Positions 1 to 3,621 are shown, counted from the stretch's first letter. The stretch: 35,919 nucleotides of DNA from Escherichia coli (GCF_003334305.1 NZ_QOWS01000032.1), one strand, 5' to 3'. The notes: generated by a model from the sequence alone, not told the origin. Translations and numbers: made by a program.

Positions 1-38
1 GGGCTGACGCCGGAAGAGTCAGAGAACAGATACCATTT

Positions 39-509
39 TTACTGTAAAACCGTGGCCAATATTACTTGACCACTACAGTGTGAATTACCACCCTTAATTG
101 TCGTTCCATTGCTGATACCACCTGTATAAACGTCCTGATTGCCACTGTCGATTATCGTACCGGTGGAAATGCCCCCGTCATGAATTGTCTGTCTTCCTCC
201 GTTAATGGTTGTATTATTAGCCTGCCCCACAAAATTGTTATGACTTCCTACATCTTGATATCCACCCGATTCAATAAGACTTCCATTAGATACCCCGCCA
301 TGAACATTCTGCTGGCCATGGTTGATAATATGAGTGTTATTTGTTGTACCTCGTTCATCTACTCTTTGGCTGCCATCTACAGTCTCATCGTTTACCACAC
401 CAATAACATCAGGAGTGAAGGCCGTCATCCCAGGCGGGGCATATATCAAGGCAGATATCAATAAGGAAAGTACTGAGCGGCGACAATAATAGGGACTGGT
501 CCTGTTCAT
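39..509 (-). pseudogene. Truncated autotransporter (AIDA/Ag43-like) adhesin, N-terminal fragment: signal peptide plus first passenger repeats
   Basis: Minus-strand ORF 39..638. Internal Met at 509 (MNRTSPYYCRRSVLSLLISALIY, signal-peptide-like) has an AGAGG Shine-Dalgarno about 10 nt upstream. It is followed by degenerate Gly/Asn/Thr-rich repeats (GGxSxGTxIxxGGxQxV) typical of autotransporter passenger domains. The ORF stops at TAA 39..41 after about 155 aa, far short of a full adhesin. Confidence 0.45.
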
Positions 510-912
510 AAATTTCATCCTCTGAAAAGTGAATACTGAGTAGCGTTTAAGCGACCTTAGCTTTGCTGCAACATCAGCCCACAGGCACCAGACCAGGGGA
601 TTCATCCTGAAGAGACAGCGCAAGTGTATTGTGTTCACCGCTCATCAAAGACATCATGATGAAATGATGATATTCCGCATAAGAATGAGGCATTTTTTAA
701 ACGCAGTGCGCTGAAGTGTGGTTGGATAAAAAAGTCAATCCATTCAGGAAATACGGGCGTATTCTTTTCTTTCGACAATGAGGCCGTTGGCAAAATAAAA
801 TGATTTACATAATCGTTTCTGATGAATATCTTCTGCTCACATAAAAATCACACAATAACTTTGAGATCGCAGATTGTTTTACTTTTACAGCATTCGTCCC
901 CCCATTGTTGGG

Positions 913-1036
913 CAAATATAGATTGGGCCAGAGCACGAAAGTTAATACCACGTTTGCACAGCTCCTCCAACAGCACGACAAGATGCCACATACTGCGCCC
1001 CAGTCGGTTCGGTTTACAGACTACCCGTGCGTCCAC
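913..1036 (-). pseudogene. Serine DNA invertase (Pin/Gin/Hin family) internal fragment
   Basis: Minus-strand ORF 848..1036 contains VVCKPNRLGRSMWHLVVLLEELCKRGINFRALAQSI, resembling the central region of Gin/Pin invertases (VVWKLDRLGRSMKHL..ELRERGINFRSLTDSI). The N-terminal catalytic serine region is absent and the sequence diverges after this segment. Confidence 0.5.
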
Positions 1037-1085
1037 CGCCGATAATGTCCTGACCAGTTTTTTCAGTCCGGACCTCCTGCCACGG

Positions 1086-1148
1086 TTTTACGTTGAAGTG
1101 GTAACCCTGAGCACGCAGTTCTTCAGTCAGGCGTGGTGTACCGTAACC
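1086..1148 (-). mobile_element. IS3-family transposase OrfB remnant (about 21 codons)
   Basis: Minus-strand translation GYGTPRLTEELRAQGYHFNVK matches the conserved IS3 OrfB segment ([21 protein letters not shown]) as recalled. It is bounded by stop codons, so only a short relic remains. Confidence 0.4.
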
Positions 1149-1421
1149 CTATTATTGATGGGTAAGATCAAAAAAACTTTCAGGCAGCTAAGGAAAGTTG
1201 AACCAGACATTAGAATAAATATTTCAACCAATTACAGCACCAATTCAGACACCGCCAGCTCAACAAATAAATCAAGGGGTTACGTGAAAGCGTAGCCCCT
1301 TTTTCTTTGGTAGTGGCAGCAAAATGGTTGTAGTGTAAAAAATAATCCCGTTTAATCAATCAATAATACATATTGTTTCAATCTACGTTATTATCTCTTT
1401 GTAAAAATAGCCATTTATTAA

Positions 1422-2165
1422 TCATTGAAAACTGCTTTTAGAACTTGATACAACGGGACTAGTCACAACAGGACTATTCTCAACGGGATCATCCTCAGAG
1501 GAACTATCATCAAAGTCATCATCCATAAATAAAATATCATCGAATGGTGCCACGCCCGTGATGAGTTTTATTTTATTATTACGATCAGTCAAGACTCCAC
1601 TTAAACCGTTTTCGCTCACAGGTTTTAATGATTTTTCATTACTCTTGTTGTAAGCAGGCGCATTAAAAATACACGGAGTATCAAGATCAAACAATGACGT
1701 TCCCCAGTTCACATATTGAATATCATAGTTACTGAAGTTCTGTCCAGAAAAGAAGCATCCCTTAAAATCCAATCCACCTAAATTATATAAACCATCCTCT
1801 TCTTTTTGGAGAGTAATGTTAATTTTGGCTATCTCCCGGACATCATCGCCATTTTTATATTTGAATACCGTTTCAAGATTTTCCCCACACAGTTTGACTT
1901 CTGGAAATAATTTGAAATCAAAGCCTATATTATTATGTATCAACGTAGATGAACAAAAGATGGAGAAAGCTTGCAGTGCTGAATTATAGCTTTCGATTTT
2001 ATCCTGAGGCTGCGCTCTTGGTAAAAACTCATAGCAACATTCATAAAAATTAAGTAGAAACTCTGAAGACCTTCCATTTTTATCAAATAATATCCCCTTG
2101 AACTCATTCACAAACGCATCTTTTTTTTCTTGAATATCTATGGGGTGTTCCTTTGACTCTGACAA
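1422..2165 (-). CDS. Hypothetical protein (247 aa as drawn); probably the C-terminal part of a gene split at a homopolymer tract
   Basis: ORF track 1422..2165 on the minus strand. Region is AT-rich. The only in-frame start is TTG at 2165..2163 with a weak Shine-Dalgarno. C-terminus is acidic and Ser-rich (DDDFDDSSSEDD..SSSKSS). No recognizable catalytic motif. Confidence 0.45.
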   Translation of the reverse strand: MSESKEHPIDIQEKKDAFVNEFKGILFDKNGRSSEFLLNFYECCYEFLPRAQPQDKIESYNSALQAFSIFCSSTLIHNNIGFDFKLFPEVKLCGENLETVFKYKNGDDVREIAKINITLQKEEDGLYNLGGLDFKGCFFSGQNFSNYDIQYVNWGTSLFDLDTPCIFNAPAYNKSNEKSLKPVSENGLSGVLTDRNNKIKLITGVAPFDDILFMDDDFDDSSSEDDPVENSPVVTSPVVSSSKSSFQ

Positions 2166-2179
2166 AGATGAAATCTCAT

Positions 2180-2794
2180 CTATTTTTTTTCATATGAATT
2201 ACGTGATTCCATACAGACATTTGGCGGCGTTTCTAAAATAACACTACGCGTACTACTTGGCTTAAGTAAACCAACATGAAAATCACTTTTTCTTATATTA
2301 TCGAAAAGGTTCTGTTCATTTCTTTTAGCGCATTCAAAAAACTGATCGTCATTATTTTTATTCGATAATTTTTTAGTTTCAGAAAACACATTTTCATTGT
2401 TTTCCAGCTTTAGTTTAATGAGAAGATTTTCCCAGACCTGCTTGCTTAAACATATTACGTCAGGCTCACCAGAACTAACTAACTCGTGATTATTATTAAA
2501 GTGTACGTTGAATACCTTTAAGTTATTTTCACCAACTTCATATTTAATACGTTTTAATTGTTCTCCAGCTCCCATAATGACAAAGGCGTTGCCTTCTTGA
2601 TATATACATTCAGACATCATTTTTTGTAAAGTTTCAAGAGCACCGCGATACGTCTCTGATGCAGCTTCCTTACAAATTAATTTTAAAATACTATGAGCTA
2701 GTAGCTCCATGTGTTTAGAAGATTTATTTTCATTATAACTTCCACTACCCAAAAATGCGCTAGCGTTAAATCCGTTGCTTTTACTAACTAACAT
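2180..2794 (-). CDS. Hypothetical protein (204 aa); probably the N-terminal part of the same split gene
   Basis: ORF track 2180..2794 on the minus strand. ATG at 2794..2792 is preceded by GAGGAA (reverse complement of 2799..2804). It ends ...SYEKK at an A8 tract (T8 on the plus strand at 2183..2190). AT-rich composition. Confidence 0.55.
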   Translation of the reverse strand: MLVSKSNGFNASAFLGSGSYNENKSSKHMELLAHSILKLICKEAASETYRGALETLQKMMSECIYQEGNAFVIMGAGEQLKRIKYEVGENNLKVFNVHFNNNHELVSSGEPDVICLSKQVWENLLIKLKLENNENVFSETKKLSNKNNDDQFFECAKRNEQNLFDNIRKSDFHVGLLKPSSTRSVILETPPNVCMESRNSYEKK

Positions 2795-3545
2795 TGTCTA
2801 TTCCTCAATTAATGTCTACATGGCTATTTTTAATTTTATTATTGTTTGTCACTATAAAAAATCGCTCATTTGAGACAATTGCTGGCATTAACAGCTTCAT
2901 ATGCTATACATGGTACTTTTAATTAAATTAGCACAAGAATGTTAAATTTAATAAACAAAAAGTTATTTCGCTGTATGATAAAAACCACCCGTTATAATTT
3001 ATTAGTGAAATTCGTTTTTCGAGTGTTAGAAATTTATATCTCAATAGCGTTGGTTAATGAGCATAGCCACGCTCCTGTAACGCTCACAAAACTCATCTGC
3101 CTGCGGCGGGTGTTCTGGTCAGTAGTAGATGTTTAAGGCGTGGCAGAGACATTTCATCCTTACTCTACGGCATTGTTCTACATACATTGGTTGTGGTACT
3201 CACTCATCATCAGTGAGCGAACAGAGAATAGTTCAGTGATTTGAGTAATTAACCTGATTAAATTAAGGGGTATAATAAATGATAATACTCTGGCTTTATC
3301 GTTAATTACTTAATTCCACATGTAAGCAATTTGCCCGCTTGGCATAGCAGGCATTTTTTCCAGGTACTTTTGAATGAGTACTGATGGATAAATACATTGC
3401 AGTGGCGTGCCACGTACCAAAACACCAGCCCTCATTCGAAACCACCCACCGCACTTCTTCCTTGAAATGGCGTTAGTCATGAAATATAGACCGCCATCGA
3501 GTACCCCTTGTACCCTTAACTCTTCCTGATACGTAAATAATGATT

Positions 3546-3621
3546 TGGTGGCCCTTGCTGGACTTGAACCAGCGACCAAGCGATTATGAGTCGCCTGCTC
3601 TAACCACTGAGCTAAAGGGCC
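3546..3621 (-). tRNA. ileY: tRNA-Ile2 (anticodon CAU, lysidine-type; tRNA-Met cannot be excluded from the anticodon alone)
   Basis: Reverse complement reads GGCCCTTTAGCTCAGTGGTTAGAGCAGGCGACTCATAATCGCTTGGTCGCTGGTTCAAGTCCAGCAAGGGCCACCA. It has a 7-bp acceptor stem, D-loop AGCTCAGTGG, anticodon loop CTCATAA, T-loop GGTTCAAGTCC and an encoded CCA end. Confidence 0.9.

Follow-up and report, generated by a model that had tools for sequence, protein, structure and literature searches.

The stretch of DNA analysed here (the window) comprises 35,919 nt of Escherichia coli (GCF_003334305.1, NZ_QOWS01000032.1), and its first 3621 positions end with ileY, the second gene for tRNA-Ile2 (anticodon CAU), preceded by remnants of an adhesin gene, a recombinase gene, an insertion sequence (IS) and the split gene ypjCB. 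Gene order is that of E. coli K-12: ypjA, pinH', ypjCB, ileY, ygaQ', glaH (csiD), lhgO, and gabDTP onward. A preliminary description made from the sequence had read positions 1-3621 as a decayed island integrated at the 3' end of the tRNA gene. The region is already annotated and described in the literature, being the known ypjA-pinH-ypjCB-ileY-ygaQ segment; positions 1-3621 very probably make up two-thirds, on the left, of an accessory segment of low GC content that is bounded by the ssrA terminator on one side and the glaH promoter on the other and carries ileY as cargo. Features of the locus are listed in Table 1. Positions 1-3700 are identical (100%) and colinear with 3618587-3622286 of strain A7 (NZ_CP028767.1). 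Strain A28 is also 100% identical to the window, with an extra IS3 at window position 670-673; a tandem duplication of ~10.5 kb in this strain includes the ypjA fragment and has IS3 copies on its flanks.

Table 1. Features of the ypjA-glaH interval, with positions counted from the first nucleotide of the window
Feature	Position	Strand	Remarks
IS3-family element end, terminal 77 nt	1-77	+	RefSeq annotation of strains A7 and A28; transposase coding sequence ends at ~69
ypjA/ehaD, AIDA-type autotransporter adhesin, 5' fragment	78-509	-	Codons 1 to ~144 of 1525; annotated 'YpjA/EhaD, incomplete'
ypjA upstream region	539-897		Includes an annotated 39-codon open reading frame, 574-693 (-)
Pin/Hin-type serine recombinase, internal fragment (K-12 pinH)	917-1084	-	~56 codons, non-functional; translation includes KPNRLGRSMWHLVVLLEELCKRGINFRAL
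IS3 relic	1079-1171		89-nt internal orfB piece and ~19 nt of IS3 end
CP4-57-type right arm and att core relic (ssrA-targeting P4-like element)	1190-1266	+	Ungapped alignment to K-12 CP4-57 attR
Intrinsic-terminator-like hairpin	1274-1301	+	12 pairs (6 G-C), then a T-run; terminator scan
ypjCB pseudogene (DUF5507 + DUF5508)	1422-2794	-	Frameshifted by loss of 1 nt within a run of A, ~2186/2187
Conserved structured element, ~180 nt	3270-3450	-	100-270 nt downstream of ileY in the sense of the tRNA
ileY, second tRNA-Ile2 gene (anticodon CAU)	3546-3621	-	ARAGORN, Met(CAT); Rfam tRNA, 73.8 bits; RefSeq, tRNA-Ile
ygaQ pseudogene, divergent GH13 alpha-amylase-like	4181-6434	+	750 aa if intact; open reading frames 4181-5827 and 5901-6434
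Right boundary of the accessory block, glaH (csiD) promoter region	6572-6770	+	Common to block-free genomes from 6572

The segment, comprising the tRNA gene and both of its flanks, is a single unit of presence and absence. Among 5426 complete E. coli genomes, sorted into BLAST coverage classes, at least 80% of positions 1-3621 is present in 2981; the tRNA gene with both flanks is found in 2882 and the arrangement tRNA-ygaQ-glaH in 3362, the left flank being contiguous with ileY in 2882 of these 3362. The remaining ileY-ygaQ-glaH cases that were examined are IS-mediated deletions or have other elements abutting the tRNA gene, and the intermediate genomes examined have lost part of the block to deletions mediated by IS1, IS2 or IS3; strains W and B have lost this tRNA gene through IS-mediated deletions (PMC3032704). 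Overall, the segment is carried by ~55-62% of complete E. coli genomes. An empty site with a spacer of ~330 bp is found in 1104 genomes (~20%), which are of B2 type, such as Nissle 1917. Homology of block-free genomes to the window resumes only at 6572, ~200 bp 5' of the glaH start; in strain CU39ES-1, for example, glaH lies ~680 bp past ssrA, with no ypjA, ypjCB, ileY, or ygaQ. A single CAU tRNA gene of this type, that of the ileX locus by mug, is present in CFT073 and E2348/69. Because the tRNA gene is absent together with the block, ileY is cargo of the segment rather than its integration target. The comparison across strains that the preliminary description proposed thus shows the block to vary, the tRNA gene and both flanks vanishing along with it.

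Both ends of the block can be placed. On the left, strains LF3-1 and GS04, which have no element at ssrA, show ssrA, then 150 bp that include a terminator, and then the ypjA stop codon; in K-12, O157, and M12, the attR of the resident ssrA elements abuts the same 150 bp before ypjA. These 150 bp are native rather than element-borne, because the attL junction of K-12 has a different sequence that is borne by CP4-57. On the right, empty-site genomes and other species of Escherichia become homologous to the window at 6572-6625, and the glaH ATG is at 6771. The block, which is ~10.6 kb long in K-12, thus ends at the ssrA terminator and the glaH promoter and therefore replaces the spacer found there in empty sites; the occupied allele lacks the ~330-bp spacer. 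The order in an undamaged segment is ypjA, pinH', IS3', an ssrA-type att relic, ypjCB, ileY, and ygaQ.

Base composition sets the segment apart from the core on both sides of the tRNA gene. The AT-richness ascribed to the 3' side of the tRNA is confirmed, with 38.5% GC (0.385) in 1-3621 and 51.7% (0.517) in the core (6572-35919); however, GC is 0.364 in 3622-6571, so that the deviation extends to 6571 and the tRNA gene does not bound the low-GC DNA. In the 1-kb GC scan no core window falls to the block mean. Further GC dips occur in the core part of the window: GC is 0.36-0.41 around 16-17 kb (16001-17000), near stpA as judged by the offset from strain A28, and 0.43-0.44 around 22-23 kb (22001-23000). 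A second tRNA gene, tRNA-Arg(ACG), is at the right end of the window (35574-35650, minus strand). Codon usage follows the same division, with 11-28 AUA codons per 1000 in ypjA, ypjCB, and ygaQ versus 0-7 in the genes from glaH through csiR; AUA use in the segment genes is 2-10 times that of the adjoining core genes. A compositional departure from the core is therefore real, but it is not confined to one side of the tRNA gene.

All the debris that the preliminary description recognized, namely a truncated adhesin gene, an invertase fragment, an IS3 relic and a split hypothetical gene, is present in the places it assigned. The window has three recent, lineage-specific lesions: an IS3-family insertion and deletion in ypjA, a 1-nt deletion in ypjCB, and a 1-nt insertion in ygaQ. 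Strain M12 has intact ypjA, ypjCB (484 aa), and ygaQ (750 aa), and O157 has an intact ypjCB. The orthologous segment of K-12 MG1655, between CP4-57 and csiD/glaH, has the same order and orientation and 93-100% nucleotide identity, depending on the part compared; the two segments share an identical tRNA gene, the same recombinase, IS3 and att relics, and ypjCB and ygaQ as pseudogenes. Their lesions are nevertheless independent, internal stops in K-12 and single-base frameshifts in the window, and K-12 retains full-length ypjA and the CP4-57 attR, in contrast to the window, where ypjA is gone past codon 144. Since the lesions of K-12 and the window differ, inactivation is recurrent and recent. 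The description of a degraded element thus holds in so far as the DNA is foreign, accessory, confined to part of the species and decaying; integration at the tRNA 3' end does not.

Comparison with other Escherichia bears on which allele is the older. The spacer of the empty site is 88% identical in Escherichia sp. E1V33, 82% in E. whittamii, and 76% in a third Escherichia lineage, none of which has ileY, and ARAGORN finds ssrA ~700 bp upstream of glaH in both E1V33 and E. whittamii. No tRNA or tmRNA gene was found within 10 kb upstream of glaH in Salmonella, Citrobacter, or other relatives; in Salmonella this place is presumably taken by the tct (tricarboxylate transport) operon, to judge from translated open reading frames. 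These comparisons suggest that E. coli and the cryptic clades started from the empty allele and that acquisition in E. albertii was separate or very old. Homology of E. albertii to the segment covers only window positions 3224-6304, which comprise the tRNA flank, the tRNA gene, and ygaQ. There, ygaQ is 67% identical (YgaQ, 60% in amino acids) versus 94-96% for the flanking glaH and lhgO, and the junction with the region upstream of glaH is at ~6622 versus 6572 in E. coli. YgaQ was found only in E. coli and E. albertii, apart from one 35%-identical metagenomic protein of 824 aa, and searches for a donor lineage of YpjCB or YgaQ gave only Escherichia besides that metagenomic homologue.

Two sets of neighbouring genes may be recorded beside these results. 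To the left of the tRNA gene, E. albertii NBRC 107761 has low-GC genes unrelated to ypjCB: one for an EspG type III effector (Pfam, 1e-166), an open reading frame that combines proline-rich repeats with a GDGNCLYHA motif weakly resembling OTU, and paralogues of L31/L36 like ykgM/ykgO. The metagenomic YgaQ homologue, on a human gut contig, is surrounded by genes like those of virulence islands, encoding InvH-like and FidL-like proteins, a Trans_reg_C regulator, an EAL-domain protein, and a giant intimin/invasin-like protein.

An alternative history would make the block, tRNA gene included, ancestral to Escherichia and deleted in B2 strains and the cryptic clades; the segment would then be old, fast-evolving, and poorly constrained DNA adjacent to the core. 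The tRNA(CAU) gene, intact ygaQ homologue and conserved tRNA 3' flank that E. albertii has at the same place by glaH speak for such a history, as does the failure to find a donor for YpjCB or YgaQ outside Escherichia. It would, however, require that deletions repeatedly create or retain the homologous ~330-bp spacer found in four empty lineages, and it is at odds with the relatives such as Salmonella and Citrobacter that have no tRNA or tmRNA gene in the 10 kb upstream of glaH. A GC content of 35-37%, AUA-rich codons, and internal relics of mobile elements point to a foreign origin instead, and the junctions of E. coli and E. albertii do not coincide. Old presence followed by losses is, on balance, improbable.

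The relics in the left part of the block point to a particular type of mobile element. RefSeq annotates the pinH fragment as a 'recombinase family protein' with N- and C-termini missing in every strain examined, even where other genes are intact. The IS3 relic matches the IS3 of strain A28 at 86.5% over 89 nt and 94.7% over 19 nt (blastn, tblastx), and it is present at 92-96% identity in K-12, O157, and M12. Next to it, 77 nt align without gaps to the CP4-57 attR of K-12 with a score of 82; 200 shuffled sequences averaged 32.7 and reached 52 at most. The core of this att relic (1251-1266), ACCGCCAGCTCAACAA, is a degenerate copy of CCCGCCAGCTCCACCA at the ssrA 3' end; the terminator-like hairpin starts 8 nt past the core, in the same layout as at the ssrA/CP4-57 attL junction of K-12, and could equally be a bidirectional terminator for ypjCB. 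The recombinase fragment, the IS3 relic, and the att relic are old and common to all alleles. No ssrA 3'-end repeat was found near the right boundary at 6572, the core at 1251-1266 being the only ssrA-like one. On account of the att relic, at least the left part of the block would seem to descend from an ssrA-targeting P4-like element of the CP4-57 type.

The preliminary description was right that no integrase is present: translated open reading frames and an NCBIfam scan gave none in 1-6571, where the only recombinase is the 56-codon serine-recombinase fragment. No P4-type integrase lies next to ssrA in the block either, the intA of K-12 belonging to the separate CP4-57. Mobilizing functions, which that description thought either lost or situated to the left, do occur leftward, where they belong to ssrA-linked elements (CP4-57-like remnants and a P2-like prophage).

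The whole block could, alternatively, be one circularly permuted ssrA-targeting P4-like element whose attP survives at 1190-1301, which entered the ssrA-glaH spacer by illegitimate or IS-mediated recombination rather than through its own integrase, which was lost later. The succession of CP4-57 attR arm and core, terminator, and non-native sequence is closer to that of an attP or attL than to that of an attR, the IS3 relic directly adjoins the att relic, and the block ends without att sites or target duplication, all as such an element would have it. Against this, no remnant of an integrase was found between 1301 and ypjCB, the terminator might simply serve ypjCB, and the GC content of ypjA is unlike that of the rest of the block. 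E. albertii, moreover, shares only 3224-6304 and has other genes leftward, which fits modular assembly in several steps better. Permutation of a single element is therefore decidedly improbable.

The tRNA gene itself is well characterized. The ileY gene of the window is 100% identical to that of K-12 over 76 nt, and one compensatory pair in the acceptor stem distinguishes ileY from ileX. Lysidine modification and decoding of AUA are established for ileX and ileY, and Hha binds the ileY and ypjC regions (PMC2408971); the latter is as expected for silencing of AT-rich foreign DNA. M12 ileY has a compensatory change from G-C to A-T in the anticodon stem and two changes in the variable loop, an unusual degree of divergence among tRNA genes of a single species. 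The E. albertii tRNA gene is yet another allele; the tRNA gene therefore diverges together with its flanks.

Elsewhere in the species, the 3' end of ileY does serve for integration. SpLE1-like/ter elements have been placed at the 'tRNA-Met between ypjC and ygaQ', ileX and ileY sharing an attB (PMC8193136; PMC8767318), and an ileY-associated phage is listed for APEC O78 (PMC4313913). In five IMG/VR loci that are true ileY insertions, homology to the window stops at 3591/3592, leaving a 46-nt fragment of the tRNA 3' end; in one of them (L102), a 477-aa P4-like integrase is encoded 180 nt from this fragment, together with a primase. The integrated elements lie between the tRNA gene and the ypjCB flank, with the 46-nt fragment remaining on the ypjCB side, and the block is therefore the bacterial side for ileY integration, not the island. 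Two further loci considered as ileY insertions were rejected: in one (H52) the distal end of a CP4-like island abuts ileY, and the other (H53) arose by a deletion that IS1 mediated. Different elements in different strains thus do use the ileY 3' end as attB, but not in this window.

Searches for a second att boundary agree with this. With 25-nt and 16-nt patterns from the ileY 3' end and up to 3 mismatches allowed, only the tRNA gene itself was found in the window and in the 20 kb to its left in strain A28, and no repeat was found in the 20 kb to the left of the locus in a K-12 derivative; in the 28.6 kb to the left in strain A7, the only match had 3 mismatches, lay on the other strand in a tail sheath gene, and is at chance level. 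The preliminary proposal that the tRNA 3' end was the attachment site of the block fails accordingly: block-free genomes lack ileY, no att repeat lies in the window or within 20-29 kb leftward, and true ileY elements sit elsewhere. That an island was put into the ileY 3' end by a tyrosine integrase, with integrase and distal att later lost and 1-3545 as its remnant, would suit the AT-rich sequence and the remnants of mobile elements found 3' of the tRNA gene and the proven use of ileY as attB by SpLE1-like/ter and P4-like elements (PMC8767318; PMC8193136), but it is highly improbable given the equally low GC of the 5' side up to 6571, the loss of the tRNA gene itself at empty sites, the lack of an att repeat in three strains, the position of real ileY-integrated elements between tRNA gene and block, and the ssrA type of the only att relic.

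The low-GC segment carrying ileY between ssrA and glaH probably arose in the following way. The arrangement ssrA-spacer-glaH would be ancestral, the block having taken the place of the spacer in an ancestor of the non-B2 lineages of E. coli; part of the block may have come from a CP4-57-type, ssrA-targeting P4-like element. The additional AUA-decoding tRNA may have helped to express AT-rich cargo, and ileY, once resident, would have become a secondary attB identical to that of ileX. Several observations weigh against this account. No target duplication or terminal repeats were found at the block ends, where there are only short repeats at chance level and no integrase. The att relic is inside the block and not at an end, and native ssrA downstream sequence does not come after its core; this needs rearrangement or an unusual history, simple integration at ssrA being insufficient. 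The GC content of ypjA is 50%, which makes the block compositionally heterogeneous, and E. albertii has an ileY-like tRNA gene and an intact ygaQ adjoining glaH. The genome counts are based on BLAST coverage classes, not on a phylogeny, and the suggested benefit of the tRNA to the cargo genes is drawn from codon counts only.

The most conserved part of the block lies between ypjCB and ileY. The 3' flank of the tRNA gene is 85% identical to that of E. albertii over 227 nt and near-identical distally, compared with 67% for ygaQ, and E. coli alleles agree at 97.8% or more over the element at 3270-3450. E. albertii ceases to be homologous at ~3224, just beyond the element, and there a conserved tRNA-ygaQ module meets variable cargo. 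The z-score of the RNA fold is -3.71 for the minus strand versus -1.31 for the plus strand; pairing holds in 98.7% of the alignment cells, and at 13 pairs one partner has changed with pairing kept, double compensatory changes being absent. A 14-codon open reading frame inside the element, MPAMPSGQIAYMWN, has only two substitutions, both synonymous. Rfam scans of the region at gathering and E-value thresholds gave the tRNA only and no family for 3270-3450, and 3094 of 5426 genomes have the element as a single copy. A tentative and rather unlikely suggestion is that it has a function, so far undescribed, linked to the island-borne ileY. As a structured 3' trailer or a small RNA, it could be transcribed together with the tRNA and might encode the 14-codon peptide; instead, it could be a recombination site at which cargoes are swapped, ypjCB in E. 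coli and EspG/effector-like genes in E. albertii.

The two halves of YpjCB in the window match positions 1-203 and 227-465 of the NCBIfam model NF050179 (YpjCB) with 386 and 545 bits, and the intact YpjCB of M12 scores 927 bits against a cut-off of 650; Pfam gives DUF5508 at 4.6e-167 and DUF5507 at 5.4e-109. The lesion was located by alignment with the intact allele of O157. Full-length relatives turned up in E. coli and Shigella only when 5.8 and 1.84 billion proteins were searched, and the one distant relative is a repeat segment of a single 3960-aa protein. Protein identity among the E. coli alleles is 68-81%, that of M12 having an insertion of ~35 residues, and nearby YgaQ alleles are 92-97% identical in aligned segments. 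By these sequence comparisons, YpjCB is an unusually fast-evolving orphan restricted to Escherichia. The possibility that it is a pentapeptide-repeat type III effector of the PipB2 kind was rejected, the Pfam Pentapeptide match (E = 2.9) not being significant; a single-sequence AlphaFold model (pLDDT 37) is unusable.

The frameshift in ygaQ is an extra T at 5821, a 1-nt insertion identified by alignment with an intact allele; RefSeq annotates the gene as 'alpha-amylase family glycosyl hydrolase, frameshifted', and the intact ygaQ of M12 has matches to Pfam Alpha-amylase and Alpha-amylase_C. At the other end of the segment, the translated ypjA fragment begins with the signal peptide MNRTSPYY and has NCBIfam matches to the Ag43 and BafA autotransporters; full-length ypjA (4.6 kb) is present in K-12 and M12. 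Positions 1-77 match the ends of IS3-family transposase genes on plasmids at 96-100%, and ypjA homology in other strains begins at window position 70-80; an IS3-family insertion with deletion has removed ypjA past codon 144 and everything up to a fragment of a yfjP-like gene. A paralogue of the ypjA upstream region, 87-89% identical to 539-897, lies upstream of another autotransporter gene adjoining ymgJ, and it is present in every genome type listed, including the block-free ones.

Among known systems, there is a likeness to elements that target tRNA or tmRNA genes, such as CP4-57 at ssrA and the SpLE1-like/ter and P4-like elements at ileX/ileY, which are also low-GC accessory DNA beside a tRNA or tmRNA gene. 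Unlike CP4-57 and SpLE1-like elements, the block has no integrase or att repeats at its ends, starts 150 bp past ssrA, and carries its tRNA gene with it. Genes for tRNAs that read rare codons are also found on phages and islands, as with ileZ-argN-argO upstream of stx in Stx phages. The likeness to Stx-phage tRNAs is that of an AUA-reading tRNA travelling with AT-rich, AUA-rich foreign genes; unlike those, ileY is almost identical to the chromosomal ileX and is a stable resident in over half of the species.

The segment is otherwise ordinary, well-annotated, decaying accessory DNA of E. coli. It does provide a caution against taking every tRNA gene beside AT-rich debris for an att site; the actual hot spot in this case is ssrA, which in undamaged strains is 10 kb away. 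It also means that there is one AUA-decoding tRNA gene in E. coli of B2 type (CFT073, E2348/69, and Nissle, for example) and that there are two in most other lineages, a number that may matter for the expression of AT-rich foreign genes.

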